DNA of 64,000 bases. Origin: Eledone cirrhosa. Its lineage: Eukaryota. A model generated the notes under the pieces. That model was not told the origin of the DNA, searched no databases, and saw only the letters and a list, made by a program, of their open reading frames with translations. The stretch's first letter is position 1, and the number at the start of each line of letters is the position of its first letter. Shown piece after piece: positions 1 to 63,735 of this stretch. Position numbers and translations under genes: made by a program. Where the stretch lies: contig OZ024745.1 in the NCBI GenBank assembly GCA_964016885.1, forward strand, positions 106,764,001 to 106,828,000, written 5' to 3'.

Positions 1-1186
1 ATAAACATGTTTTAACGGTTTGTTCTCCTTTATTTACTTCTCCACACACACACACACATATATATATATATACATATATGTATATAAAAACAATTTAGTA
101 TACATGTACATTTTATTGTATTAATAACATAAATTATATTGAAATAACAAAGGTATCATTGTTTATAAATGTTCAAAATGCTTGCCATTAGCAATTTGAT
201 CTGGGTTAGCTTCCGCTAACTAAAAACTAAAAGAACCTTCGTGTTTGCTATACATCTGTTAGAAATATCAGCCACAGGTCCAACAGATCAGGCTCGGCTG
301 TCTTTAAAATTGAAAAATACATTACAACCAAGAATGGGCTCCTATGTGGGCCTTCGTCAGGTTATAATTAATGGTAAAATGACTCTCAAATTACACTACG
401 ATTAAGATAATATACTGAAAAATATGGGTCTCAGATTATTGCGTTATGTACCTGGAAAAGGGACGGGTTGATCTTAGCTGATGTCCCTTTCACCATATGT
501 ATGTTCCATAATATATTATGCTAGGCTGGAGCCAAATAACAGCAATTAAAACGCATGTATGCTGTTAATGAATATATTAGCAGTAACAGCTAAAGTTTCA
601 AATAAATCAAAAACTATCGTATTCATGAAATGATAGCATATCACTGCTCATAGCTTAATCAGAGCTTGCCTAAACTTAACCAACAACAGCTATGCGTATT
701 CTGAGCGTGTGATGAATCCTCTAAGCCAGGGATACTTAACGCTTCATCTCTCATATACACCAACCACTTGTATTTCACTAAATACCTCCTTACATTCTTG
801 CTGAAATGTATACTTCATAAATGCTAGCCCATTTCCCTGCTTGGTCGTTATCTTTTAGAGTCGACTCTATAAGTTTGATCATTTTTATAAAGAATTTTTA
901 TCATATTTCCTTATCTGTTATGCTTGATTTGGAACATTAGCTATCCTAAATCCATGAATATATTAATGTTTTAAGGCATTCATTGTGTTCGATAAGCAGA
1001 AGCGCGAAAATTTAAGATACAGAGGATTAAAACATTAGCAAGGATTAAAGAAAATGTCGTATGTATGTATGTATGGTGGGGGGAGGGGTGTCTACACGTG
1101 TTGTGTGTGTGGAAATATATTTTCTTATACCACTATCAATAAATCCATATTTATAGAGTGTTTGTTTCTATTATTTATGCAAAAAA

Positions 1187-2005
1187 GGCGGTGGATTGGC
1201 AGTATTGGTAGAGCATCGGACAACATACTTTCAGTCATGTAGTTTCGGTCCTTTACGGTTGGAGTTCAAATCCCATCGATGTTAGCTTTGCCTTTCATCC
1301 TTATGGAGTCGATGAAATAAAGTACCAGTCATGCACTGGGGTCGATTTAATCGACTTTCCCCTCCCCAAAATTGATGGACTTGAGCCTAAATCAGAAACC
1401 ATTATTTTGGCAGTGGATTGGCAGTATCGGTAGAGGGTCGGACGCCATGCTTTCCAGCATAGTTACGTCCCTTTACGATCTGAGTTCAAATCCCGCCGAG
1501 GTTGACTTTGCCTTTCATCCTTACGGGGTCGATAAAATAAAGTACCAGTAATGCACTGGGTAATTGCTGGCCTTTTGCCTAAAGTAGAAACAATTATTTT
1601 GGCAGTATCGGTAGAAGGTCGGACGCCATGCTTTGATGCATAGAGTTACGCCCCTTTCAATTCTGAGTTCAAATCTCACCGAGGTTAACTTTGCCTTTCA
1701 TCCTTACGGGGTCGATAAAATGAAGTACCCGTAATGTACTGGATAATTGCTGGCCTTGTGCCAAAAGTAGAAACAATTATTTATACAAAAAAAAAAAAAG
1801 AGGTAGATTGACAGTATCGGTTGGGGGTAGGACAACATAGTTTGAGGCATGTAGTTATGACCCTTTAGGGTCTGAGTTCAAATCCTGCCGAGGTTAGCTT
1901 TGCATTTCATCATTACGAGGTTGATAAAATGAAGTACCAGTAACTCACTTCGGTCGATTTAATTGACTTTCCCCATCCAGTCAAATTGCTGGCCTTGTGA
2001 AAGTA
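1187..2005 (+). mobile_element. Head-to-tail array of four tRNA-derived SINE copies (main family)
   Basis: Unit: ggtggattggcagtatcggtagag (A-box-like)...gagttcaaatcc (B box)...gcctttcatccttacggggtcgataaaataaagtaccag...gctggccttgtgccaaaagtagaaacaattat. The central domain resembles, from memory, the MetaSINE core. Confidence 0.85.
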
Positions 2006-2025
2006 TTTAATAGAAAATAATAAAT

Positions 2026-2229
2026 CCCAGTGGAAGAAAGACGCAGTAGAGGAAGACCACAAAAAACATGGGCGGAGATGGTGAGAGCTGACCTTAGATC
2101 GCTGAAGCTCACGGAGGAGATGACGAAGGACCGTGACAAGTGGAGAGATGTTGTGCTGAATAGGACCCGTCCCACCCTTGTAAGCAGGGAAAAGCGGACG
2201 TAAAATGATGATGATGATGATGATGTTGA
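2026..2229 (+). mobile_element. RTE LINE 3' end with (TGA)n tail
   Basis: VEERRSRGRPQKTWAEMVRADLRSLKLTEEMTKDRDKWR... (RGRPxxTW...DRxxWR) followed by TGATGATGATGA. Confidence 0.8.
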
Positions 2230-3385
2230 TGGCAGTGGGTCGGCAGAAGAGTTGAAGCGCCTAACAAAACGTCTTGCGGCATTTAGTTGCGGATTTTTTC
2301 GTTCTGAGTTCAAATCCTATCATGTTTATCATCACTGCCTTCCGCGATCAATAAATCGTTTTTCCTGTTTTTCCAAAATTGGCCTTCTGCCTAAGCGAGA
2401 AACCATTATTTATACAAAATATATAGAAAGTTTCATTTAATCTAGAAGCATTTTTGGCTACTTTATTGTTGCCTTTATATTTATTTTTCAATTTCGTTTC
2501 GTTATAATATTATACTTTATGTTATTGTTGCTGCGTAGTTTTATTATTGTTGTTTGTCTATTAATTTGAAATTGTTCATATTGACACTAAGAATAGAAAT
2601 GTTTATTTTTATAGATGTTAACGATTTATTTCTACTGTTCGCTTGCGTCTTCTTTCGTGGCAGGTTTATTGTTTTTGGTGAAATTCAACAAAAGAACCTT
2701 CTTATCCAGTTGTAGACAGAAACTATTTGTTAATGATGGTTATACATCAACAGTTCCTACAGGAATTAATTGATGCTTCTGTAAATTTACGTATTTGCAT
2801 CAAATGTATAATAAAATAGGTCTCTTACATGATAGCTTTATATGTATGCTTAATCGTGATTGTGTTGAGAGTACAACAGCGTACGTGCTTCTGTGCATGT
2901 GTCCACGCTTGCATTTGTTCATTTGACCAGGCCTTGCACGAATGCGAAAGAAAATCAGTTTGTATTTAAATAAAGATTTTACACGCACCGGCCTAACACA
3001 TATTTATACACATGTATACACGCACACACACACACACACACACGCACATATATATATATATCAACACATACACACACACACATAAGCACTATGTGTTGGT
3101 GGAATCTTAGATTTCTTTCTGTATATCTTTGAAAAATATGTTTAGAATTTTCCTCCATAATTATCTATCTTTGTATTATATATCTTTATTTAAAAAAATT
3201 TATTTTTCAAATTTACTTTTGTATAACATCTCTTACCCACACTGTCATATTATATAAATTTTATTTGTTCATACCTACATGTTTTCTTTAATTCCACACA
3301 TGTTTTTAAATTTTCGTATTGTATGTATGAATGACGATGCATGTAAACGCTCTCGGGAGTGATATGAAATAATTTAGCACTATAA

Positions 3386-4283
3386 TAATTGTTTCTACTT
3401 TAGGCACAAGGCCAGCAATTTGAAGGGATGGGGGGAAAGTCGATTAAATCGACTTCAGTGCATTACTAGTACTTTATTTTATCGACCTCGTAAAGATGAA
3501 AGGCAAAGCTAACATCGGCGGGAATTTATCACTATAATAATGACTTCTAATTTAGGCATAAGTCCTGAAAATTATGGGAGGGGAAAACTGATTAGATTGA
3601 CCCCAGCATTCGATTGATACTTTATTTTATCGACCTCAGATCGATGAAAGGCAAAGAGAACCTTGGTGGGGTTTAAACTCAGAACGTAAAGAGCCAAAAC
3701 TAAATACTGCAAAGCATTTTGCCCTATGCTCTGACGATTCTGCCAATCTAATATACCGAGAATGGTGATAGTAATAATAATTGTTTCTACTTTTGGCACA
3801 AGGCCAGCAATTACTCAGTACATTACTGGTATTTTATTTTATCGACCCCCGTAAGGATTATTGGTGGATTGGCAGTATCGGTAGAGAGTCGGAAGCCATG
3901 CTTTCCAGCATAGTTACATCCCTTTACGATCTGAGTTCAAATCCCGCCGAGGTTGACTTTGTCTTTTATCCTTACGGGGTCGATAAAATAAAGTACCAGT
4001 AATGCACTGGGTAATTGCTGGCCTTGTGCCTAAAGTAGAAACAATTATTATAACAACAACAATAATAATGGATTGGAAAAATCGTTAGAGCGTCGTACAA
4101 AATGCTTTGCAATATTTAGTTGTGGTCCTTTACGTTCTGAGTTCAAATCCTGCCGAGGTTAGCTTTGCCTTTTATCCTTATGGGGTCGATAACATAAAGT
4201 ACCAGTCACGCACTGGTGTCGATTAAATCGATTTTCCCTTACCCAAAATTGCTGTCCTTGTGCCTAAATCAGAAAAATTATTA
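3386..4283. mobile_element. Cluster of five main-family SINE copies or fragments (three minus, two plus)
   Basis: Same diagnostic motifs on both strands; orientation switches at about 3860. Confidence 0.8.
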
Positions 4284-4509
4284 TCGTGTCAATTCTTAAA
4301 TTCTTAAATTATCTTGCTCAACAACACAACAAGCCGCCAGAAAAGAAACTCATGACCTTACGATCATGAGTTAAATAGTCACTCTGAAAATACTATTTTT
4401 GAAATCTGTGGAAGTGGGAGATGGATCACTTTTAAGTAACACAATACATTTAGATATCTAATAAAATAACTTTAAAAACTTGATTTAGTGGAATGATACG
4501 TGATTTGAA

Positions 4510-5085
4510 GAACCCTGCTGACGAGGACGCGGCATGGGGTTACCGACGAAAGAAACGCCGGCAAAGCCTGTGAGATCGAGGACCGGAGGCTAAGGCTGCC
4601 ATGCCTGACAGCTAAAGTGGCCTGTTGCCATCCAATGTCGTCAAACTTGATGTTGCATATCTCCTCGGCTGCTGCTCGGATACAAGTATCGAGGTCAGCG
4701 AGGAGAGATCCGTGGGTGTAGCACGGAGCGCTGCGAAGAGTATAGAGGAGCTTCGGCATGGCGAAGCAGTTCCTCAACAGAAAGAGAGCTGGGTGGCCGT
4801 CAATCAAGCCCAGTCGGCTCGTGAGAGTCTGAAGTTGTTGAAGCCTGGACCTGATGGTGGAGCGGATGGCCGGCGGGTGGATCGGTAACCCGATGATGAG
4901 GATATCCTCTTTGGGGGGTCACCTGTATCTGGTGGAGAATGGACCGCACGTCCGAGACGGAGGCTGCAAAGCTCTCAGCATCGTGGCTGACATTCACCAC
5001 CTCCGACTTGACAGAGGGGGCTCGGCTGAGGCAGGCATCGAGCAGATGGTCCCGACGTAGGCAGTTGAAGGCATTCCTCATGTTC
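4510..5085 (-). mobile_element. Non-LTR retrotransposon RT fragment, CRE-like clade
   Basis: GC-rich island. Frameshifted peptides RNAFNCLRRDHLLDAC and LFLLRNCFAMPKLLYTLRSAPC...WQQATLAVRHGSLSLRS...ALPAFLSS resemble the CRE motifs NAFNxxxR and ATLPxxxGGLGxR...A.PAFLAS. Confidence 0.7.
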
Positions 5086-5507
5086 GTATCTAAGCTATGG
5101 TTACATCAATTTTTGAAGTAGAATGAAGTCTTGTAGTTGGTGTATCGATATAAGGCGCGGGGTGTCTTCTAGTCTAATTGACTTCTAATCTGTTGTTGAT
5201 TTGGGGCTAGAGTTTGGCTCTTTGAATACATTTTTTGATTGCCGGTATTTCTGTCCCTGGCTTCGATATATCTTTATTTGTATTCTTGAACTTATCTATA
5301 TGTTTCTTGGGGGAGAATCCAAAGTATAGCTTAATAAATACTTATTTGTTTAGTTCAGCTTGTACCAATAAGTAGTATGATCTATGTGATTTAGTTTACG
5401 CTACAAATTTATGTAAATGACTTTGTATCTTTGTTGTTAGCACACTATAAGTACATTTTGTTAGCAACAATTGCTACTTTGCTGTAGAGACAATCACCCG
5501 GTTCCAT

Positions 5508-5906
5508 TGTAACTATAATCAGTAACTACTGTAGCAAGCTACTTTCCTTTGGCGCATTGATAGGCTGTTCGTGCGTGATTTGGCTAAGTAAGGCCAATCG
5601 TGAGCCGCGCACGAATATATATTACCAGCTTCCGCCCAGAGATTTTCCCGCTACTTTCGATTTACTCTCTCTTGTTGCTTTAATCATGGAAAGGTAAACA
5701 CCATTTTTCTTTTGCCGTTCGACCACTAGCCAATATGTAGCGACAACAACATAACTACGGCCTGGCCAGCACCTCGGGCAGGCGACTGTACCTTCTTAAC
5801 TCTTAATTTGTTTATTCCTTTGTTTGGCATGCCAGCTCAACCTTTGTAATCGGTTTGTAAATAAATGATATAAAAACTTGTGAAGTCTTGTGATTCTATC
5901 ACCACA
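5508..5906 (+). mobile_element. Possible solo LTR
   Basis: TG...CA termini, flanks tccat/accat (4/5 match), CCAAT at about 5594, AATAAA at 5860-5865 about 40 nt before the end. Confidence 0.35.
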
Positions 5907-6434
5907 ACCATAGCCTTTAAATGTGATATGGAAAGATCCTTTCCAGAGTTATTATCACTGCAGCAACAGAACTTGGGACTTACAGCCGAACCTCAATTCA
6001 ACTAACATTGCCATATAACAAAACCGTTACATTTATTGATATAACAAATCTATACCTTTCCTGCTACAACGCAAACACATATTATCATTGTTATAAATAT
6101 TATTAATATTATGCCAACATGGCATAATATTATTTTCTACTATACTACTATATCATACAGAGTGAACTGGATTAGAAAAAATACATGCAGAAAGTCCAGA
6201 ATGTCCGAAACAGGATACAGTACTATAATGTGAATAAGTATTATGTTCCTCTGCCATATATACCTATATACTAAAAATGGCTGTTGATTTCATGGGTCTT
6301 GATCCAAGTTGCATGTTTAATGCAAGGCTGATTCAAATTTGAAATTTAAATCGGTAACAGATCTGCGTTAAACAATATATTCCGTGTAACGACCGTATAA
6401 TGTGCAATAGTTTTATCTATGTGCAATAGTTTTA

Positions 6435-6686
6435 TCTAAAACAGAGAATGTCTGTCTGTCTGACGCCCTAAAACTCGAGAACCAGCCAACCGATTTTTTT
6501 TCAAACTTTACACATTTAATACTTATGGTCGTGTGATTGTTTTGAGCAAAAAATATTTCAAATTTTCAATGCCATAGGATAGCCATTAGATAGCTATAAC
6601 GTCGCGCCCTTATAATATCTGTCTGTATGTCTGGCTGTCTGCATTACGACATTATGACACTATCTGAGTGTGTGTGTGTGTGTGTA

Positions 6687-6774
<88 letters not shown>

Positions 6775-12860: not shown

Positions 12861-13592
12861 AGAGTGGTCAGTATAGCTAATAGTTAGTAATAAAACAGAG
12901 CTACGTGGAGTAGAGTGGTTATTATGACCGCTCCATGTACTAATTAGCAATAGAACAGAGCCACATAAGCACGGTGTACTAATTAACAAGAGAACATAGC
13001 TACATGGAACAGAGTGGCTATTGTGACCACTCCATGTACTAATTAGCAAGAGAACAGAGCTACATGTAGCAGAGTGGCTGTTATGACCGCTCCATGTACT
13101 AATTAGCAATATAATATAGCTACATGTGACAGAGTGGCTATTATGAACGCTCCATGTACTAATTAGCAAGAGAATATAGCTACATGAAACAGAGTGGCTA
13201 TTATGACTGCTCCATGTGAAAATTAGCATTATAATATAGCTACATGGAGCAGAGTGGCTATTATGACCGCTCCCTGTTCTAATTAGCAATAGAACAGAGC
13301 TACATGGAACAGAGTGGCTATTATGACCGCTCCATGTACTAATTAGCAATAGAGCATATTATGACCGCTCCGTCTACTAATTGTTTCTACGTTTGGCACA
13401 AGGCCAGCAATTAACCAGTACATTACTGGTACTTTATTTTATCGATCCAGTAAGGATGAAAGGCAAAGTTAACCTCGGTGGGATTAACTTTGCTCCATGT
13501 ACTAATTAACAATAGAACAGTGCTACATGTAACATAGTGGCTATTATGACCGCTCCATGTACTAATTTACAATAGAACAGAGCTACATGGAG
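12861..13592. repeat. 60-bp minisatellite, about 10 units, interrupted by a truncated SINE (13379-13493)
   Basis: Unit agagtggctattatgaccgctccatgtactaattagcaatagaacagagctacatggaac; rows 13021-13321 align in register. Confidence 0.9.
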
Positions 13593-23833: not shown

Positions 23834-25488
23834 CACTGGTCAACAGCCAAAATGCTTCTGAGACCAAAGTAGCAATTTCTAATGAATATCATGGTTAAAA
23901 CTGCTTGTTAGCTCTACTTTTCAACATACACGGACGTTTGTGGCGTATAACTACTATGGTTATACGGCACAGAAACGTTGTATAACTACTCTGGTTAAAA
24001 ATGCATACCTATATTTTGGATGCAAGATTGGTGACCAGGATAAGAAGTGGGCTCTTCACATATGCTGCAACACTTGTGCTACAAACATTTACCAATGGTT
24101 GAACAGGAAGATGAAAGGAATGCCTTTTGCTGTGCCAATGTCGTGGCAGGAGCCAACAGACCATACCAGCAATTGCTATTTCTGCATGGTACTTCCAGTA
24201 AAAAGGGGCTTGTCAAAGAAGAAAAAGGAATCCGTTGAATATCCAAACATTCCATCAACTATTCACCCAGTTCCGCATGGAGAAGGTGTACCTGTTCCTG
24301 ATGCACCAAGTTTGGTATCCTTCAAGTCAGATGAAGAAAGTGTTGAGGAGGAGAGCAGAAAATGATGACCGAGTGACCCAAATTTTGATAAAGCACTCTC
24401 CTCTAAACAAAGAACTCCATAACCTTGTCAGGGATCTACAACTACCTAAGCATAAGGCAGAGCTACTAGGCTCTTGTCTTCAACAGTGAAATCTCCTAGC
24501 ACTGATGTGAAGATTTCAAAATTCCGTGACTGTCAGCAGCAGTACAGCAATTCCTTCCTAATGGAAGGTGATTTATTGGCCTGCAACAATATTAATGGTC
24601 TGATGGAAGCACTTAATATATGTAAAAGCTATGGACAAATCCAGTCAAGGATTCAAGTATTTAACATCAAAATTCCCCTCACTGAGCAACGCTAAGATAG
24701 CAGATGGAGTCTTCACTGGTCCTCAGATTGGTGAGCTTCTTAAAGATAGTAACTTTGAATCAGCCCTTCAAGGGGAGGAGAAAGCTGCTTGGGAAGCATT
24801 CAAGTTAGTGGTGAAGGGAAGGAACCTATGAAGAATAGGTGGAAAACCTCATCGAGACTTAAAAGAACATAGGATGTAACATGTCACTTAAAATCCACTT
24901 TTTAGACTCACATTTAGACTTTTTTCCAGCCACCTGTGTGACAGTTAGTGACAAACATGGTGAAAGGTTTTGCCGAGATATTTCAAAAATGGAAAAGTGG
25001 TACTAGGGCAAATGGAACACAATGCTTGCAGACTATTTCAGGACAATGACAAGAGATGATTCTTCAGCCCACTATAAGTGTCAAGCATAAAAGGTAGAAA
25101 GTAGATACGAACTAGAGCTTAAAACATAATGACACATATTGTTCATTATAATAAAATAATCAAATATTACATGCCATATATCTTTAAGCCTATAGCTAAT
25201 AAGCATTCATCAAGGTGATTTTTGGATTCAGTACATGAAAATACATAAGAATTAAATATTTGTTTCTACTTTAGGCACAAGGCCAGCAATTACCCAGTGC
25301 ATTACTGGTACTTTATTTTATCGACCCCGTAAGGATGAAAGGCAAAGTCAACCTCGGCGGGATTTGAACTCAGATCGTAAAGGGACGCAACTATGCTGGA
25401 AAGCATGGCGTCCGACCCTCTACTGCCCATAAGAATTAAATAATCTCATTTAAAAAGCACACAACTTTTCAAAAATTGTTGACCAGTG
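23834..25488 (+). mobile_element. Decayed, internally deleted DNA transposon, probably Chapaev3 (CMC superfamily)
   Basis: 12-bp TIRs CACTGGTCAACA / TGTTGACCAGTG with flanks tta / ttg. Frameshifted transposase pieces: YFGCKIGDQDKKWALHICCNTC...MPFAVPMSWQEPTDHTSNCYFC, ELHNLVRDLQLPKHKAELLGS, FKYLTSKFPSLSNAKIADGVFTGPQI, MSLKIHFLDSHLDFFP...SDKHGERF. Superfamily assignment is from memory of CAC termini and 3-bp TWA TSD. Confidence 0.8.
25259..25427 (-). mobile_element. Main-family SINE nested in the Chapaev3-like element
   Basis: 15-bp TSD cataagaattaaata at 25244-25258 and 25428-25442. Confidence 0.88.
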
Positions 25489-27304: not shown

Positions 27305-27994
27305 TTACAACCTGTGCAACCAAATGGTTAATAATATACAGGAAAGCACCAATAGATTTGTAAACATTGTAGGTCCCAATGGCAACATTCCTGAAAATCT
27401 ATCATCGTATATTCTAAGATTTGTTCGGTTGCGACCATTTTTAGCAATCTCTGGATTTAAATTAAGAAGGTCCTGCCAGGCATTGTATGCAGCTGCTGTG
27501 AAGTTGTTATCGCCAGTGGTCATCAAATCAAAGACACAAGAGTCGAAGTAGAAACCTGCAACATTGGCATCACGACATGCCATTTCAGCTTCGACTCTCA
27601 ACATGGCAACTTTGTTTTTTATTTCGTATTCCTTGAGTTTCTCTTGTCGCTGAGCAAGAAATTTTTGGTAATTAATTTGTTGCGTCTTTGGACAGCCATT
27701 GACACACAACTCGGGTTGTTCATCAGGTGTAGATGATTGTGCAATTTCCTCAGGCATTCGAATCGAAAATGTAAAGTAGCGGCCAATGTGACGAACTAAA
27801 ATTGTAGTGTCAATGTATTTTATATGGATTTTGACGTATTTCGAAGGTTCTAGCACCTTTATTTCAATTCCTTTGCCGTGTCCGTAGTGTGTGCTTCCAC
27901 CTTCGAAGGTATTCGGCAAACTGCGTTCATGGGTGACGTATGTTATAGGTCTACTTGATCCACATTTATCGTTTTTTTTTATCATGACGGTTAA
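27305..27994 (-). CDS. RGM: Terminal coding exon of a repulsive guidance molecule (RGM/hemojuvelin family) gene: C-terminal vWD-like domain plus GPI-anchor signal
   Basis: 229-aa open frame LTVMIKKNDKC...SLPNTFEGGS...YVKIHIKYIDTTILVRHIGRYFTFSIRMPEE...LCVNGCP...C...FYFDSCVFDLMTTGDNNFTAAAYNAWQD matches RGM_C motifs I recognise (IxVRQxGRYLTFAIRMPE, LCxxGCP, YFQSCVFDLLTTGDxNF). Hydrophobic C-terminal tail LLVLSCILLTIWL*. Preceded by a polypyrimidine tract and acceptor ttctctttcatttcag|TTA (AG at 27996-27995), phase 0. Confidence 0.93.
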   Translation of the reverse strand, partial: LTVMIKKNDKCGSSRPITYVTHERSLPNTFEGGSTHYGHGKGIEIKVLEPSKYVKIHIKYIDTTILVRHIGRYFTFSIRMPEEIAQSSTPDEQPELCVNGCPKTQQINYQKFLAQRQEKLKEYEIKNKVAMLRVEAEMACRDANVAGFYFDSCVFDLMTTGDNNFTAAAYNAWQDLLNLNPEIAKNGRNRTNLRIYDDRFSGMLPLGPTMFTNLLVLSCILLTIWLHRL

Positions 27995-42772: not shown

Positions 42773-42820
42773 TGCCGAAAAGGGTGTGGTGCTGATCACA
42801 GCCCCACACCCTTTTCGGCA
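42773..42820. repeat. GC-rich hairpin
   Basis: tgccgaaaagggtgtgg-t-gctg-atca-cagc-c-ccacacccttttcggca: 17-bp perfect stem, 1 mismatch, 4-bp stem, 4-nt loop. Confidence 0.85.
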
Positions 42821-43683: not shown

Positions 43684-45745
43684 ATGTATGAATGTTTTAG
43701 AGACAGATAAATAGATGGGGAGGGACGTAGTGAATTATATTCTCCGGGTTATATACAAATACAACAGACAAAAAGATAGAATATAACCATGGCATGAATA
43801 CCTTTTGATAAAGCCGGTTATATTCAGCAGAACCGACTTGGAGCTAAACAGCAAGAGCAGCAATCCGGATCACTTAAAAACGAGGTGAACGAGACATGGG
43901 TGGGAGGGAAAAACAGACACGCATCAACAAAGGAAAATGTATTCAGATGGAGATGGCGAAACCGAAACTGGGTAGTTTGTGGTGTGGGGAAAAACAGGAG
44001 TGAGAGATAGATAGAAGGGTGTGGTTTTGTATACTTGCTTCCCAGAGGCAAACTCCCCATATATATATATATACACACACATATATATTATATATATATA
44101 TATACACACATATATATTATATATATAATATATATCTCCAGAAACATGCCACCCACTTTCAGGTCTAATTCACTAAAATAACAATGACTAGATTGAATGC
44201 AGCCGAGAAATTTCCAAAGCTTACTGATTGTTCGAGAAAGTGTGAGAAGTAGGAGGAGGTGTGGATGGGAGAAAGGGGTGAGCGGGGATGATGAAGCAGG
44301 AAAACATGGCGACGGTCTGTTTTGATAAGGAAATTTAAGATGAAAAAAGGTAAGGTAGTCAAAACCACGTTTCCGGTCTCTTTGGAAGTAGTAACTAACC
44401 CACAGAGACTAGGCAGGATTATATTGTAAAAAGACGGTAGAGGTAACTTGTATTATAGAAAGAGAGAATGAACGAAATAAAAGTGTGTATGTCTGTGTTT
44501 GGCACGTACTTGCCTGAGTGCGTGCACTTTTGAGTGTGTGAATGTGTGTATGTGTGTATGTGCGTGTGTATGTGTGTATGTGCGTGTGTATGTGTGTACG
44601 TGCGTGCGTGTGCGCGTTTTATGGAAAAGCAGACCAAGTAAATAAAGAGGATAAATTAAGAAATGGATAGTAAAATAAATGGAAATACGAATTATGAAGA
44701 CAAAGTGGAAATATGGAAAGAAGGAATTTTCATCAACGTATAAAATAAATAAATAGATAAAAGGGTACCTATATAAGGAGCATGCAGTTTATAAACAAGA
44801 AACAAACATCAGATGAGTGGCTAGCAAATAGTGCATTAAAAAAAAGAAAATACGCTTTGTATTTATTCCAACCAAATTTCACATTCTTGCTACTCTTGCC
44901 ACCAGAAATGCAATGAACCAGTAATTGCTCCACTGGATATTTATAACCGACGAAACTATTGTTCACAAAATGCACGATTTAAAAAAACAGAAACCTACAA
45001 AAGTAAGTTTGTAAAATACCCTAGGCAATTCACAAATTACTTTTCCGTACACCAAGAAAATTTTCGAGAGAGTGGTAGTACTCAGTCAAGTTAGGTATTG
45101 CTAGGCTCCATTCGGTCATAGTGAAAACGCGTTAACCCCCCCAGCAGTTAAGGTTTTGAACTCAAGATCATACGGTTGTGGGTTCGATTTCAGGACAGGA
45201 CTCACCGCCTCATATCACGTTGATTTTCTTGATACAATTGAGCACCCCTATCATTGAAACCAGTGTGAGACAACCACGTACGAGGCCAACTAAACATGCA
45301 TAGGTGTGAGCTGTAAAATCTGAAAGAGCTCTGAGATCCAGCATATATTTCGCCACGCATATTAATCCGATGCTTTAACGAATCTGTTAATTCGCCCTCT
45401 AAAGGTAGACAATGACACAAATAATCGATTATCATATTATAATACTAGTTTAAAATTACATTTTGAACCATATGGAAGCAGGCAACAACCAACCTCCTAG
45501 AGCCACTAGATAAAGACGTTTAAATCGGCATTTTAAAGGAAAGAGCGATGTACTCTGGTGGAACCAGATGGCAGCGTTAATGATTTTTCTTGATTTGTGA
45601 AGGAGCATAGCTTAATGGTTACGGTGTTCGGCTCAAGACGTTAGTTCCATTCAGTGGAATGCTCAGGCACTTGTAAGTTAATTTCACGAGTAGGCAGTTC
45701 TGGGGATTAAACAACAGGAACGTTTTCCGCCGGAGCCATACATAC

Positions 45746-46033
45746 CAGTCTACGAGGGACAAACTAGTATTTATTACAATACCATTCAGTCTACGAGGGA
45801 CAAGGGGACTGACTAGTATTTATTACAATACCATTCAGTCTACGAGGGACAAGGGGACTGACTAGTATTTATTACAATACCATTCAGTCTACGAGGGACA
45901 AGGGGACTGACTAGTATTTATTACAATACCATTCAGTCTACGAGGGACAAGGGGACTGACTAGTATTTATTACAATACCATTCAGTCTACGAGGGACAAG
46001 GGGACTAACTAGTATTTATTACAATACCATTCA
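45746..46033. repeat. 49-bp minisatellite (5 near-identical units plus one 41-bp unit)
   Basis: cagtctacgagggacaaggggactgactagtatttattacaataccatt starting at 45787, 45836, 45885, 45934 and 45983. Confidence 0.95.
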
Positions 46034-46458
46034 AAAGTCAATGAAGAAACACACATACACAGCAGCTTCTGGTATTTGTGTATTTATTTTAACGACCTTG
46101 GAAGGGTGAAAGAAAGTTGATCTCGGCGTGATTTGAACTCAAGATGTAACCACAAGGTATTTTATCTCATGCTCTACCGACTTCGCTATACACACACACA
46201 TGCATGCATGATAAAACATTTATATTTAGGTGATCCTATTTCATGCGTCTATCCCGGTAAATATCTTCACACCAGATGTGTGTGCGTGGGAGCGCGTACG
46301 TGTTCATATTGCATATGTCTGGACTCAATTTAGCAGAAAAGGACTTATAAACCATTAAGGATGTTTATACTTCATATATAAACTAAGCTGATAACAAATT
46401 GGAATATGGTGTATGTACTTATATAGGGGCCTCTCCGCTCTCCTCACTCTCTCTCGAG

Positions 46459-46960
46459 GGGGAGAGAGAAGAGAAGAGAGAGAGAAGGAAAGAGAAGAGA
46501 AGAGAAGAGAAGGAAAGAGAAGAGAAGAGAAGGAAAGAGAAGAGAAGGAAAGAGAAGAGAAGAGAAGGAAAGAGAAGAGAAGGAAAGAGAAGAGAAAGGA
46601 GAGAGGAGAGGAGAGAGGAGAGAGGAGAGGAGAGAGGAGAGGAGAGAGGAGAGAGGAGAGGAGAGAGGAGAGGAGAGAGGAGAGGAGAGGAGAGAGGAGA
46701 GGAGAGGAGAGAGGAAAGGAGAGAAGAAAGGAGAGAAGAGAAGAGAGAAGAGAAGAGAGAAGAAAGGAGTGAAGAGAAGAGAGGAGAGGAGAGAGGAGAG
46801 GAGAGAGGAGAGAGGAGAGGAGAGAGGAGAGAAGAAAGGAGAGAAGAAAGGAGAGAAGAAAGGAGAGAAGAAAGGAGAGAAGAGAAGAGAGAAGAGAAGA
46901 GAGAAGAGAAGAGAGAAGAGAGGAGAGGAGAGAGGAGAGGAGAGAGGAGAGGAGAGAGAG
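46459..46960. repeat. Polypurine (AGAGG/AGAAG) tract
   Basis: About 500 bp of almost pure A/G on the plus strand. Confidence 0.95.
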
Positions 46961-47468
46961 ATTTGCAAACACACACAATGCCTACACAGAGACAAAAATC
47001 TATTTAATGTCCTGTTAGTGAAGATGTCTCATCAGAATGAAATTATCACTGTCCTCAAAACACTGAGTAAAGATGATTCGAGATCTCAGCAGTCGTTTCT
47101 ACGTATGTTTCTCTTTCTTTTTGGAATTATTGACGTAATGTGGAAGGAAATAGGGATTTTAAAAGTGTGCGTAACACTGGGTTCATTCATGGAAGGTGTT
47201 GAAGGGTAAGCTAAACGAAAAAATGCCCACGTTTTCATAATTATTTTCAAGTATGACAATTCAATAACACACATACACAACATATTCGTAACCCGAGTTT
47301 GACAGAAATACAAACCACATAGTATATTTGCATCAAATAAAACGAGGACCGGATGCAACTGCAATATATATATATATGCAGAGGTTATATTTAATTTGTT
47401 AGGATTCAACAAGCTTAAACATTTTTATAACTAATATAAAGCACTCAACAAGTTAGTGGAGTAAAAAC

Positions 47469-47857
47469 ACAATATATTAATAAATGGAAACTATATTTAT
47501 AAAACTATATTTATTTTATGATATATATATATTTCAAGGGCAACCAAGGCAAATTATGGTGCGCTTTCATCAGATAAAATACAGATTTGTTTTATAAATA
47601 AATATTGACATACCCGGAAAAAAGACAACCTTAACGGTTGAGGATAGTGGAGATAATATTTTATTGCGGGTAATCGAAATATCTCCACCATCCAGGAAGC
47701 TTCAACCGTTAAGGTTGTCTTTTTTCCGGGTATGTCATTTATTTATAAAACAAATCTGTATTTTATCTGATGAAAGCGCACCATAATTTGCCTTGACATA
47801 TATATAATAAAATAAATATGGTTTTATAAATATAGTTTCCATTTATTAATATATTGT
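47469..47857. repeat. Long fold-back inverted repeat (about 170-bp arms) carrying HHR-A; Penelope-like pLTR remnant
   Basis: acaatatattaataaatggaaactatatttataaaac...gacatacccggaaaaaagacaaccttaacggttga is mirrored by tcaaccgttaaggttgtcttttttccgggtatgtc...gttttataaatatagtttccatttattaatatattgt. Confidence 0.9.
47512..47581 (-). ncRNA. Type I hammerhead ribozyme motif (HHR-A), complete
   Basis: Minus strand: uauuuuau-CUGAUGA-aagcgca ccauaauuugccuugg u ugcccuu-GAAA-uauauauaua-UC-auaaaaua. Stem I is 8 bp and perfect. Stem II is aagcgca/ugcccuu (1 mismatch) plus cca/ugg. Stem III is an alternating-AU palindrome. Predicted AUC cleavage between 47520 and 47519. Confidence 0.75.
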
Positions 47858-47900
47858 ATATATATATATAATTTTTTTTCTTCTGTGATATATATATATA

Positions 47901-48100
47901 TTAATATAGAAAAGCTTCTACAGGACTAGAACTGTTTCATTCGTAAGAAATCATCAGGAAGCTGACTGTCCAAGTATGATGATTTCTCACGAATGAAACA
48001 GTACTAGTCCTGTAGAAGCTTTTCTATATTAAAACATTTATACTCTGCTATGTATTGAGTACCTTACTTACTGTGGTTACCCCCGATTGAACCCGGAATA
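47901..48100. repeat. Fold-back (56-bp arms 47901-47956 and 47977-48032, 2 mismatches, 20-nt loop) carrying HHR-B, plus the family 3' extension
   Basis: ttaatatagaaaagcttctacaggactagaactgtttcattcgtaagaaatcatca vs tgatgatttctcacgaatgaaacagtactagtcctgtagaagcttttctatattaa. Related sequence recurs at 50824-50963 and 63674-63735. Confidence 0.9.
47913..47963 (-). ncRNA. Type I hammerhead ribozyme motif (HHR-B), complete
   Basis: Minus strand: agcuuc-CUGAUGA-u uuc uuac gaa u-GAAACAG-uucuaguc-CUGUA-gaagcu. Stem I is 6 bp and perfect. Stem II is uuc/gaa closed by U.U. Stem III is ACAG/CUGU with a near-palindromic loop. Predicted GUA cleavage between 47919 and 47918. Confidence 0.8.
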
Positions 48101-48134
48101 ACACACACATACACATATATATATATATATATAT

Positions 48135-48223
48135 GAAAAGAGTCAGGACACCGACCGTTTCGACAGTTCGGATTTAGCTGTCGAAACGGCCGGAGCTCAG
48201 CCGTCAGGGTCCTCACTCTTTTC
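48135..48223. repeat. Fold-back containing the 3' half of a hammerhead (GAAAC-ggc...gcc-GTC)
   Basis: Outer arms gaaaagagt/actcttttc and inner 12-bp arms ccgtttcgacag/ctgtcgaaacgg. GAAACGGC-cggagctca-GCCGTC forms a stem III plus GUC site, but there is no CUGANGA upstream. Confidence 0.7.
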
Positions 48224-50175
48224 CTACTACCCACTCCAGTACCCTAAGTATGGTGCATTATGGTGCACCTGGTATCTTACCACACCCTTTTTGTTTTTAT
48301 ATATATATCCATGGGCCTTGATCATGAAGTCGTGGGACGTCGTAACGTAACATACGGTGTGTCTTGGGCATTTTGACCATCAAGGCCCGTTTCCTTCTGA
48401 GAGAGAAAGAGAAAAGGGGGTATGAATCGACCCTAGCACTCAACTGGTACTTTATCGACCGAAAAAAGATGAAAGCCTAAGTTCAATTCACAGGGATTTG
48501 AACTCGTAGTGCAGAGCACAGGGTCGAATATTGCAAAACATAATATCCGACGTTCAAGCAACTCTGCCAACTCACATATATATATATATATATATACATA
48601 TGTGTGTCTGTGTGTGTATGTGTGTATGTGTGTGTAACAAACGTTAAACACCAAGTAGTGTGCGCGTGTTCGCGTACACGTGCATGTGTGTTGGTGAATA
48701 TTTGTAAAACGAACAGAAATGTGCACATAATGCACATTAAGTCGCAATACAATGGGTAACAACAGATGGCAATAAGCCAGACGACACCTGATAATTAAAT
48801 ACGAGGTCATTCTGGGCGCTTACATATTTGCATCTGTCTGTACATGTGCGCAGGTTCGTCGTCGATGTCGCTTTCTATCCATAGCTTTTGTCAAAAGTAA
48901 TCAATTTGAGAGAGAGAAGGGGGCGAAGTTAGGAATATACACATACACAGTGAATTAGAGGGAAGAGAAATCGGATTAGACTGGATACCACACACACAGA
49001 GTATATATATATATATATAGTTATAGGAACACCAATTCCACACACATTGTCATCATTACTCGCCTACCTCTACCGAGGTAATGTAAACACACTTAGAAAC
49101 TGAAGACAACACTAGTGTTTCAATTGGACGCTACTTTAGTCTCTAGTCGAGACAGAGATATTAGCTAGCCAGCGCTAATCTTTAAAGAATTAATCGTATT
49201 AAAACTTTGAAGTAATTTTAAAATCAATCTCACCGTGTTATAGTAAGCAATCCAGAGAAATTAAGCTTGCCCGTTCCCAAACTAAACCTTGTCTTTAAAA
49301 AAATGGGAAGAACACATTGAATAGTGTTATAAATACAGGGTTTTAATACCTGGAACGCTATAATAGGTCTGCTTGGATAACAGCTCACATTGGATACATT
49401 GTCTAAAAATAAATTAGGATTATCATGGCTTGAACAATTTGATCTTAGACATGCTTGATCACAGTTGATCTGAGATTAAACAACCATGGATATACGCGCC
49501 GACAATAAGTTGAATATCTCAATTTGGACTCTTGGAAATATAGATTAATCTGAAAGAAGTAGAATAATCGTTAGCTGATTACAATCTGATCTGCCTTCCC
49601 TAATTGATATGTAAATCTGAAAGATTCTCAAAGATAGTAGGGAAGTTTCAATGGTTTGAGAAGGAAGAAAAGGAGGAAATATATAAAGTAAAATCTAATA
49701 GAAGAGAAATCTGTAAACTAAAATACAATCTTAAACGAATTTCTCACTAAATAACCTTCAATAAACTATAAAAATCGCAAAAACATATGGGGATATCAAT
49801 ACACCTAGAATCCATAACTCATATACATACACACACAGAGTCAGCAATTCATAAATAGAAATCTCACTAATAGCAATGTGAAGTTCACACAGGACGACAA
49901 AATAACACAGCAATAACAGAACTAACAATTTCCAGCGACTTTTAATATTTAGCTGACTAGCCAATCTTTTCATGAACAAAACATCATCACGCATATGGTA
50001 GCTTGTTTACTAGTCACCCGGAGCGGAGCGCGGCTGAGGCACCACCCGGACTGGGGTGAAGTGTCTATCCCTGCCACCCTCCCTTGCTTTTTTTGTTGCT
50101 TGATCCTTTTTTTATTTTTCCTCTTCGTTCCATTTAATAGTGTTTTGTTTTTCCTAGATTCTGTATTTCTATATA

Positions 50176-50355
50176 ATTGTTTCTACTTTTGGCACAAGGC
50201 CAGCAATTACCCCAGTGTATTACTGGTACTTTATGTTATCGACCCCGTAAAGATGAAAGGCAAAATTAACATCGGTGGGATATGAACCCAGATCATAAAG
50301 GGCCATAACTCTATGTTGCAAAGCATAGCGCCCACCCTGTACCGATACTGCCAAC
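50176..50355 (-). mobile_element. Main-family SINE
   Basis: Reverse complement of the family motifs. Confidence 0.8.
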
Positions 50356-50507
50356 ATGACATTGAGAGATTTTGTATATTGAATGTGTTTTGCATTTCAA
50401 TTATTTCATTTGATAATTCGAAAAATGAAACTACAGTTAATTATTTTATGTTGTTCTATCTGTAAGATATTACTTTACTTCATTTATTAAACACATCTAA
50501 CTATAGA

Positions 50508-50538
<31 letters not shown>

Positions 50539-50823
50539 TATATTATATTACCGGAGTAGTGGTTTTATATATCCAGCTTCCTTTACACTACCACATTTAA
50601 CGAGGTTTGAAAGTACCAGACGACCTGGCCATACTTGAAATCAGAAATGTCAAACATTGATTATAGTACAGTACTAATACTGAGACATCTATAATCATCA
50701 ATGATGGTCAAACTAATAGATATAATAAACGTTCCCCAACCCCCAAACTGGCTACATTCTGGCTGAATTAGAAATCATTATTGATATTCCTATTTGCGCA
50801 CGCCCGAGAATATGCGTGTAAAT

Positions 50824-50963
50824 CCCAAGGTGAAATCGGGAATAACCACAGTTAAAAGGGTACTCAATAGAGCGTAAACATTTTTTAAATATAGGAATGC
50901 ATGCCAGATGATTTCATACGAATGAAACAGTTCTAGTCCTGTAGAAGCCATTTCTATATTAAA
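50824..50963. repeat. Second, inverted and decayed copy of the HHR-B family
   Basis: 50833-50895 is the reverse complement of the family extension at 48021-48090. It is followed by cagatga-tttcatacgaat-gaaacag-ttctagtc-ctgta-gaagc (core mutated CUG->CAG). Confidence 0.8.
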
Positions 50964-52287
50964 TATATATATATATATATATAATCTATATATATAAAAC
51001 AAAATATGTATTTTCCCGCATTTATACATAGCAGTTCATGGTTATAAAACTGTCCCTAAACAAAAACAAATAGGTATGAAAAACGACAAAGAACCGGTCC
51101 CCCTCCACCACCACCACCACCACCACCACCACCACCTTCAGTTGAGGAGAGAGGGGATAAAGAGAAAGAGATAAGTGATAGAGATTGTGTAGTAAGACTG
51201 TAAATTGACACAGGTCGTCTTAATTCATACACTTCATTGGCCATTATTTACATAACTATTCAAAGTTTTACAAGGCTTAATGATATCTGGCTGGCAGTTT
51301 TGAAGTGGTATGACAAGAGAGCTGCGAAGAAATTTTATTTTATAGTGTGAAAAGTACATTGTTGGCGAAAAAATTCTCACCGAGTCAGTTTGTATGGGTA
51401 CCGGTCTGGAGGTTAGCAAAGAGAGCCTTCCTGGTTAGGTGTACACACACACAATGTATATATATATATATACACACACAAATAAAATATAGAGTTACAC
51501 ACTCATATAGGTACCCTGCAATGAAAACAAGCTCAAAGTATAAATACCGAGCATTATATAGTAATATATATGTATAAATATATATATATATATATATAAA
51601 AGATTAAATTTTTAAAACATTAGTGGTATCTTATACCCTCGTAATTTTAGACACGAAATTTACTGTGTTTATTTATTTATACACACACACACACACACAC
51701 ATATCTATATCTATATATATACTACGGTTTAGTAATAAAGATTATCTTATAAACGTGTAGTACCTTCACTCACGCACCCGGATGTATTGATAAAGCAATA
51801 TAAGACCACATCGTAAAACTATATATAGAAAGATGATAACCATTACGTGGTCACTTAGTTGGCTAGAAATACCAGTCAAATATTGCCTGAAATTAGACAC
51901 TACTCTCTCTCTAAGAAAGCAAAAATAGAGACACCAAGAAAGTATGCATATGGGATTTAAAGACACGATTGAGCTGGTTTTGAACATCAAACAAATGTGG
52001 GTAAATGTGTGTGTGCGCGCGCATGCCCATGCCGCTGGCTTCTCGGACAACATAAGACTGTCTAATAATATCATTGACCATCTCCAGTTTCGATACTCCA
52101 CCTCGCGCCACTTGCATGTGTTGTCTTGAAACACCAGCTTAACACTGATCGAATAGAACTATATGACCAAAAGCATTTCATCAATGATTATCGTACGTAT
52201 ATGTGATATGTAGGGCTACATAATTTAATATGGTGTGTGTGTGTATGTATATAGTAATAATAATAAATTTGAAGACTAAAATCTTGC

Positions 52288-59869: not shown

Positions 59870-60021
59870 ATAAATGGAATAGAATGAAACGAAATTTCAT
59901 TTCTCACTCTTAGTACGGCACTTACTTAAATGTAAGTATGTATGTATACGTACATATATATTTAAGTAAGTGCCGTACTAAGAGTGAGAAATGAAATTTC
60001 GTTTCATTCTATTCCATTTAT
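59870..60021. repeat. Perfect 62-bp inverted repeat with 28-nt spacer
   Basis: 59870-59931 ataaatggaatagaatgaaacgaaatttcatttctcactcttagtacggcacttacttaaat is the exact reverse complement of 59960-60021. Confidence 0.92.
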
Positions 60022-63673: not shown

Positions 63674-63735
63674 ATTTCTATATTAAATATTTATACTTTG
63701 CTATGGGTTACCCCCCGATTGAACCCGGGATACAC
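63674..63735 (+). repeat. Third remnant of the HHR-B family (downstream segment only)
   Basis: tttctatattaaatatttatactttgctatg-ggttaccccccgattgaacccggga matches 48021-48098 with an internal deletion. Confidence 0.7.

Follow-up and report, generated by a model that had tools for sequence, protein, structure and literature searches.

Putative Penelope-like stub insertions, two of them with hammerhead motifs, clustered at microsatellites in an Eledone cirrhosa contig

Introduction

Insertions of Penelope-like elements (PLEs) have been described to carry an inverted, 5'-truncated copy and a tail of 30-40 nt at one end, and to favour microsatellites (PMC8557442), and inverted pseudo-long terminal repeats (pLTRs) have been found head-to-head with the tail on one of them (PMC3846280). 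Here we analyse a 64-kb stretch of the Eledone cirrhosa contig OZ024745.1 (the window, in whose positions all element coordinates are given), where three neighbouring fold-backs, E1, E2 and E3, each probably represent a separate stub insertion of a PLE, consisting of two 5'-shortened, head-to-head copies with a one-sided tail and microsatellite flanks. Papers are cited by identifier.

The endonuclease-bearing (EN+) PLEs, Neptune, Penelope/Poseidon and Hydra, resemble E1-E3 in their head-to-head truncated copies, a tail on one arm, an AT-rich or microsatellite target and many short copies, and they resemble E1 and E2 in a type I hammerhead motif near the 3' end. They differ in that E1-E3 show no open reading frame (ORF), have tails of 68-91 rather than 30-40 nt, and lie as three families side by side. 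For Poseidon of Anolis, it was demonstrated that the protein cleaves the two strands of AT-rich DNA and also extends them, that two starts of reverse transcription bound the tail, and that hammerhead cleavage is dispensable for insertion (PMC11167929). In Octopus vulgaris, a species other than the source of the window, PLEs make up 6.83% of the genome in 190 families (PMC13282606).

A link between truncated PLEs and hammerheads paired on opposite strands at distances of 100-700 bp was reported in 2014, and the minimal PLE hammerheads of Schistosoma (Cercyon) and of other metazoans share with the present locus the opposite-strand pairs, a long stem II and a palindromic stem/loop III suited to dimers (PMC4209133). 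Unlike these, both motifs described here have a 4-bp stem III, built of (UA)n in E1, and lack the G10.1-C11.1 pair. The axolotl HHR_Amex2 is a type I motif that has, like E2, a U.U at the base of stem II; its monomer cleaves weakly (22% in 1 h) and its dimer better (PMC7229834). Non-LTR retrozymes, by contrast, are head-to-tail tandem units of 150-450 bp that give circular RNAs (PMC7229834), whereas E1-E3 are inverted pairs. The architecture of our locus is not new; E1-E3 look like undescribed octopod PLE families.

Results

Three adjacent fold-backs from unrelated families

E1, E2 and E3 are inverted repeats at 47469-47857, 47901-48032 and 48135-48223 (Table 1), the arms of which are alike at 166 of 170 aligned columns (3 gaps), 53 of 55 columns, and 29 of 32 columns (1 gap), respectively. 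Past each inverted repeat, a repeated extension continues on one side only, for 91 nt in E1, 68 nt in E2 and 74 nt in E3. Each element thus described comprises a short arm stopping at (TA)n and a long arm with this tail, with the 3' ends facing outward. Where the E1 tail ends, CTGCA and TGCAG, a 5-bp inverted pair, enclose the TA run and form with it a 24-bp palindrome (47359-47382).

Depth, junction and variant data were taken from four sequencing runs aligned at 80% likeness onto 46965-48570. X1, with the same species label, consists of contigs and may be the source of the assembly; X6 is filed under another species label, and X7 comprises raw restriction-site-associated DNA (RAD) reads from another study, these three runs representing three studies. 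The depths of X5 were small, and this run is not used as evidence of range. In the search for runs that contain the sequence, none of those listed was of RNA. Summed depths are not copy numbers, and are read only as thousands of copies or more. In X1, depth was 12.5-18.4 in the 7 bins of the left flank, against 6.4e4-1.7e6 over E1, 5.3e5-1.4e6 over E2 and 8.7e4-4.2e5 over E3 (9e4-4e5 on its long arm); one bin, 48099-48152 (depth 7.3), lies within repeat that is skipped in aligning. In X7, 46,067 of 12.5 million reads aligned, none of them on the left flank. X6 reached 6e4-5.5e5 over E2, up to 1.9e3 over E3 and 0-83 over E1, and this contrast therefore indicates separate family histories. No two different elements align significantly beyond shuffles (lowest 21 of 200). 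E1, E2 and E3 are unrelated multi-copy families of thousands of copies or more, which upholds two claims of an earlier reading made from the letters alone (hereafter the sequence-only reading): that the elements share no obvious similarity, and that they stem from several distinct, high-copy families with PLE-type architecture, as seen in the depths, one-sided tails and outward 3' ends.

With the tails included, microsatellite sequence stands at all six ends, and other copies also end in (TA)n: 45 X1 contigs pass from 47469 directly into it, and 820 X7 reads do so from 48295. The sequence-only reading was correct in naming (TA)n as the target, but the inverted repeats as it had bounded them do not have microsatellite borders on both sides. 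Between E1 and E2 lie two TA runs and a spacer. The TA letters at 47522-47531 belong to the E1 motif, whose stem III they form, and are not a landing site.

A possible fourth fold-back had been noted at 48313-48388. This hairpin, E4, has short arms and does not belong to the set. It is single-copy (X1 depth 11.5 versus 12.5 in the flank, 0 X7 reads) and lacks any core motif, on which grounds we rejected it as a decayed hammerhead.

Table 1. Coordinates of the elements, motifs, microsatellites and coding exon within the window
Feature	Position	Strand	Basis or remark
(TA)n at E1 tail end	47364..47377	.	sequence; X1 unique-flank contig stops at 47389, shortly after entering E1
E1 long arm, a 5'-truncated, PLE-like 3' end that keeps its tail and an intact hammerhead motif	47378..47656	-	summed depth 8e4-8e5 vs 12.5 flank
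E1 tail, ~91 nt, absent from short arm	47378..47468	-	repeated in other copies
Hammerhead motif 1, complete type I	47512..47581	-	descriptor scan, folding
E1 short arm, ends at (TA)n	47657..47857	+	broken hammerhead copy 47759-47814
(TA)7, 18-nt spacer, (TA)6 between E1 and E2	47857..47900	.	sequence
E2 short arm, intact hammerhead motif, 3' end at (TA)n	47901..47976	-	sequence comparison
Hammerhead motif 2, complete type I	47913..47963	-	descriptor scan, folding
E2 long arm, starts at core U4, including 68-nt tail 48033-48100	47977..48100	+	tail depth 1.4e6 in X1, 5.5e5 in X6
(CA)n(TA)n between E2 and E3	48101..48134	.	sequence
E3 short inverted arm, 14-nt internal loss	48135..48166	-	shares AG 48165-48166 with long arm at junction
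E3 long arm	48165..48297	+	GAAA 48183-48186, 4-bp stem with palindromic loop, GUC, 74-nt tail 48224-48297
(TA)5 at E3 tail end	48298..48308	.	sequence
E4, short imperfect hairpin	48311..48390	.	arms 11-12 bp, fold z -2.9, 1/200 shuffles
Second E2-family copy, more decayed	50834..50963	+	tail inverted, arms joined at stem I, core interrupted at U4, (TA)n at the end
Third E2-family fragment, limited to tail and 3' part	63676..63732	+	sequence comparison
RGM last coding exon	27308..27994	-	85% identity to Octopus sinensis RGM, 73% to Argonauta RGM

Inversion points vary among copies

Head-to-head, 5'-truncated copies are seen in E1, E2, E3 and the E2-family copy at 50.9 kb, the latter lying 2.7 kb from the cluster and following the same plan as E2 with a different junction. 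Junction points differ among copies, while in E1-E3 the tail is on one arm only. In the aligned runs, E2 junctions join 47942-48068, 47946-47991, 47960-48050/48051/48055 and 47963-48057, and a strand switch is found at 47954/47957-47960. The X1 depth of E1 drops 5'-ward from 1.7e6 through 6.6e5 to 6-8e4; E1 reaches at least 75 nt upstream of stem I, and its junction lies ~75 nt upstream of the motif. The falling depth of E1 and the variable junctions of E2 are as expected for separate truncated insertions. Because the inversion points differ among copies, and the E1 depth falls as for truncated retrocopies, the fixed, tiny non-autonomous elements of the sequence-only reading are not borne out; neither is their retrozyme-like nature, as there are no head-to-tail tandem units (no head-to-tail hammerhead array among 79 rows of Tandem Repeats Finder output). 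Both arms of E2 carry the same departures from the family majority, and therefore both likely derive from one source molecule.

Hammerhead motifs of E1 and E2

Complete hammerhead motifs near the 3' end are present in E1 and E2 only. Our type I descriptor, in which a single mismatch was tolerated where stem II begins (under stricter settings the E1 motif alone was recovered), returned exactly two complete motifs in the 64 kb, both on the minus strand, and no complete motif in 100 shuffles of the window or 5000 shuffles of the region. In either motif CUGANGA, GAAA, an NUH site and three stems are present in type I order. Motif 1 has an 8-bp stem I, CUGAUGA at 47573-47567, a long stem II with a C.C mismatch, GAAA at 47535-47532, a (UA)n stem III and an AUC site, with the predicted cut at 47520/47519. 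Motif 2 has a 6-bp stem I, CUGAUGA at 47957-47951, a U.U followed by a 3-bp stem II, GAAA at 47938-47935, a 4-bp stem III and a GUA site, with the predicted cut at 47919/47918. The complete minus-strand hammerheads were foreseen by the sequence-only reading, as was the broken plus-strand copy of E1, which is 14 nt shorter in stem II/III, with a 10-nt deletion between two CCTTG repeats, and which reads GACA for GAAA (47797). The plus-strand copy of E2 had been called broken as well, but is 5'-truncated at core U4 rather than mutated.

Position 47797 is A in 11530 of 11590 and in 2160 of 2173 X7 reads, such that GAAA is kept in >99%, and the GACA on the short arm of E1 is therefore a private change. 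The cleavage triplet of the E1 family varies between AUC and AUA. Furthermore, a stem II variant at the loose ends 47528, 47794 and 47798 (4038, 10663 and 4317 X7 reads) has three pairs changed on both sides, A-U to G-C, G-C to A-U and C-G to U-A, with the C.C mismatch retained; this covariation was read by eye from loose-end consensus lines in partial rows, and the CUGANGA of the variant reads falls outside the 30 letters seen. Across the three E2 copies in the window, variation is found in loops II and III but not in the corresponding stems, and the core of the 50.9-kb copy is broken. At the distal end of stem I, this E2 copy has an A-U pair where the family majority has G-C. These comparisons support a hammerhead core that is kept, and stems that covary, within the E1 and E2 families. 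Single-copy arms or a loss of core and covariation had been named beforehand as signs against the sequence-only reading, and neither is found for E1 and E2, given the depth, the GAAA and the compensated pairs.

In isolation, the motifs lie 2.0 (E1) and 1.0 (E2) kcal/mol above the minimum-energy fold. With few flanking bases the minimum-energy folds are not hammerheads and z-scores are unremarkable, and forcing the motif within the whole element costs 69.5 (E1) and 63.5 (E2) kcal/mol.

E3 and the octopus Naiads

For E3, a hammerhead 3' half had been noticed, and indeed it has GAAA, a stem of 4 bp, GUC and a strand that may serve as stem I. It is a candidate hammerhead at most: CUGANGA is absent from E3 and from the 30 upstream letters of 2210 X7 reads of other copies, which depart from the window sequence before 48165 (median loose length 70). 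A type II permutation or a twister motif was rejected by eye, as the pairings fail to close, and a coding role for the open frame of E3 was rejected for having no protein match and a stop upstream in the reads.

With motifs chosen after viewing the Naiad text, and compared by eye rather than by alignment, E3 and the 3' ends of Naiad_Obim and Naiad_Ovul have in common, in order, CGCCG, TACTGC (in the upstream reads), TGTCGAAAC, CCGT-GGGG and CTGA. The terminal ACAYCCTTTT before (TA)n is likewise common to E3 and the octopus Naiads by eye, and GAAAC-to-end measures 110 versus 103 nt. In the 584,131 characters of supplement available for PMC8557442, TGTCGAAAC, a word chosen after the fact, occurs twice, both times in octopus Naiad 3' ends. 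The stretches between the common motifs differ in E3. Naiad and E3 are alike in their (TA)n preference and in having no canonical hammerhead; the same supplement lists the octopus Naiads with this preference, and Naiad_Ovul with half a hammerhead core. Based on these shared motifs, the parent of E3 is possibly a Naiad. The 12-mer at the tail end of E3 is matched exactly 3 times in the window, where 0.21 matches would be expected if one mismatch is permitted, and stands twice in a 48-bp inverted pair at 42773-42820 that is not beside (TA)n.

Genomic context

The window is rich in microsatellites, with 40 merged (TA)5+ loci, and holds a single coding exon, the last of an RGM gene (Table 1; Pfam RGM_C). 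Matches to Pfam were obtained for 3 of 112 window frames, RGM_C alone being above the cut-off. Upstream RGM exons were not found in the window, to which only the part of the homologue from residue 532 to 760 could be mapped. The cluster therefore probably lies in an RGM intron of >36 kb that takes up 28-64 kb, with minus as the pre-mRNA strand. Relative to this intron, the intact E1 and E2 motifs would be sense-oriented. No ATG-led frame traverses the tail of E1 or E2. Two stop-free frames, 23886-24365 (+) and 4472-4918 (-), gave no Pfam match, and look like remnants of a transposase and a non-LTR retroelement. Beside E4, at 48416-48570, lies a diverged copy of an abundant repeat resembling a short interspersed element (SINE), present at ~20 other places in the window. 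Minisatellites are found at 12975-13358 (60-bp unit, 6.4 copies) and 45756-46033 (49-bp unit, 5.7 copies), with no hammerhead motif in the window-wide scan. A further, near-perfect fold-back at 59873-60018 (95% over 148 columns) has its right end at (TA)n, bears no likeness to E1-E4 and contains no hammerhead core; it is possibly the stub of a further family.

Discussion

How could such stubs arise? By analogy with Poseidon of Anolis, a PLE GIY-YIG endonuclease would nick both strands of a (TA)n tract, and the reverse transcriptase (RT) would begin at two sites on the element RNA, the tail end and the tail start. Both cDNAs would stop early and their ends would be joined, a joining that we infer, leaving the 3' ends facing outward; self-priming, as proposed in PMC3846280, would yield the same product. 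The hammerhead motif would be part of the copied pLTR, predicted to be active in the parent RNA, probably as a dimer through the palindromic stem/loop III, whereas in the inserted E1 and E2 copies the fold-back is predicted to mask it, at a penalty of 63-70 kcal/mol. Each insertion would split its TA tract and leave fresh targets, and stubs of different families could therefore pile up without a special landing-site mechanism. The parents of E1 and E2 likely belong to the hammerhead-bearing clades Neptune, Penelope/Poseidon or Hydra, none of which is singled out.

Several points weigh against reading E1-E3 as PLE stubs. None of the 112 window frames holds an RT or GIY-YIG remnant, and when the open frame of E3 (44 codons) was compared with known proteins, 4 candidates came up, none of them at E up to 10. 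The tails of 68-91 nt exceed the published length. Target-site duplications are unreadable because the ends lie within (TA)n, and no empty-site joint is found among 15 of 260 joints. The G10.1-C11.1 pair closing stem II is replaced by A-U in E1 and U.U in E2, and Rfam, over 44000-52000 at E up to 5, gave no hammerhead match, only simple-repeat miRNA matches below the gathering score. The family data draw on 40 of 189 variant rows, 15 of 260 joints and 24 of 1444 loose ends, and the adjacency of the three elements is without independent support, X1 possibly being the source of the assembly. Finally, hundreds of E2-family contigs diverge from the window at the point where stem I starts on its 5' side: at 47960, 484 contigs of X1 and 463 of X6 do so, with an agreement of 0.41-0.42, low beyond four letters. 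This cluster of departures suggests a preferred E2 5' end over random truncation.

Such a preferred end leads to the most serious alternative, namely that E2, and perhaps E1, is a true non-autonomous family, in which a short hammerhead-plus-tail RNA with its 5' end at stem I is copied in trans by a PLE. We regard this as a real, if clearly minor, possibility. Loose ends pile up at 47954-47964 in two species without common upstream sequence, three E2 pieces lie within 64 kb, none with coding sequence, and retrozymes have been argued to be non-autonomous PLE derivatives (bioRxiv 10.64898/2026.07.22.740005). However, the preferred end fits a pLTR-only copy of an autonomous RNA as well, as such a copy would also stop at the RNA 5' end (inferring from PMC11167929), and the contig counts favour unique flanks over collapsed shared sequence. 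Moreover, E1 extends upstream of stem I with falling depth, and tandem units are missing.

It would also be conceivable, though rather unlikely, that the cluster marks a real hotspot, at which a fold-back or a flanking TA hairpin or cruciform draws PLE insertions beyond what the abundance of (TA)n explains. Three of the four window fold-backs with arms of ~30 bp or more that abut (TA)n lie within 920 bp, versus 40 merged (TA)5+ loci, and a decayed E2 copy is 2.7 kb off. Yet the site was chosen for being a cluster, and a rough Poisson estimate, with the rate per TA locus assumed to be 0.05-0.3 insertions, predicts ~40-6700 triples in 3 Gb (0.001-0.14 in a window of this size); among 15 of 260 joints, none connects different families. 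The three-element cluster may need no special cause, its members being chance neighbours given the abundance of PLEs, and the convergence on one landing site proposed in the sequence-only reading is not required. A hotspot would in any case be compatible with insertion of PLE stubs.

A bolder version of the non-autonomous idea, which we offer as speculation with little probability, holds that E2 is a ~140-190-nt hammerhead-plus-tail element with the first strand of stem I as its 5' end, present in many thousands of copies across octopods, and that the ribozyme fold, apart from cleavage, serves as a template-switch signal that builds the palindrome. Hints of this are the clustering at 47954-47964, in two species, of loose ends as well as strand-switch joints, the 50.9-kb junction at stem I and the E3 junction within a putative stem II. 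Conversely, the E1 junction lies well upstream of its motif, and that of the present E2 copy does not coincide with a helix.

Fold-back DNA transposons inserting at TA, akin to miniature inverted-repeat transposable elements (MITEs), with the hammerheads as passengers or chance, would account for the long near-perfect inverted repeats, TA flanks, lack of an ORF and high copy number. We consider this very unlikely, as the ends are asymmetric through the one-sided tails, inversion points vary, depth drops 5'-ward, and stems covary around a conserved core in a motif found in 0 of 5000 shuffles. Least credible of all is a chimeric origin of the palindromes during assembly or amplification: the stretch is spanned by none of the contigs listed, but the arms differ by substitutions and indels, strand-switch joints occur in X1, X6 and X7, and the separately decayed 50.9-kb copy has the same plan.

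With separate PLE stubs as the preferred explanation, the families themselves appear to be new. Literature on hammerheads in octopus and other cephalopods leaves the E1-E3 families undescribed, most subscription papers, Repbase and Dfam being outside this scope, and they may already be catalogued as octopus Penelope families. Ribozymes are not mentioned in the available text or supplement of the 2026 O. vulgaris repeat paper (PMC13282606), nor molluscs in the available part of the retrozyme preprint (10.64898/2026.07.22.740005). Short words of E1 and E2 are absent from the Naiad/Chlamys/Hydra supplement of PMC8557442 as far as available, where line breaks may hide words, and exact patterns are absent from viral contigs, prokaryote genomes and metagenomes, where octopus repeats are not expected.

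ORF-based annotation has probably missed these families, or mislabelled them as MITEs. As the short copies number in the thousands, their 5' ends and inversion points can be placed on the ribozyme structure, providing a cheap test of how inverted pLTRs are assembled and what purpose the hammerhead serves. A-to-I editing is heavy in this animal group, and if the cluster does lie in an RGM intron, its fold-backs would give 55-170 bp of double-stranded RNA in the pre-mRNA.

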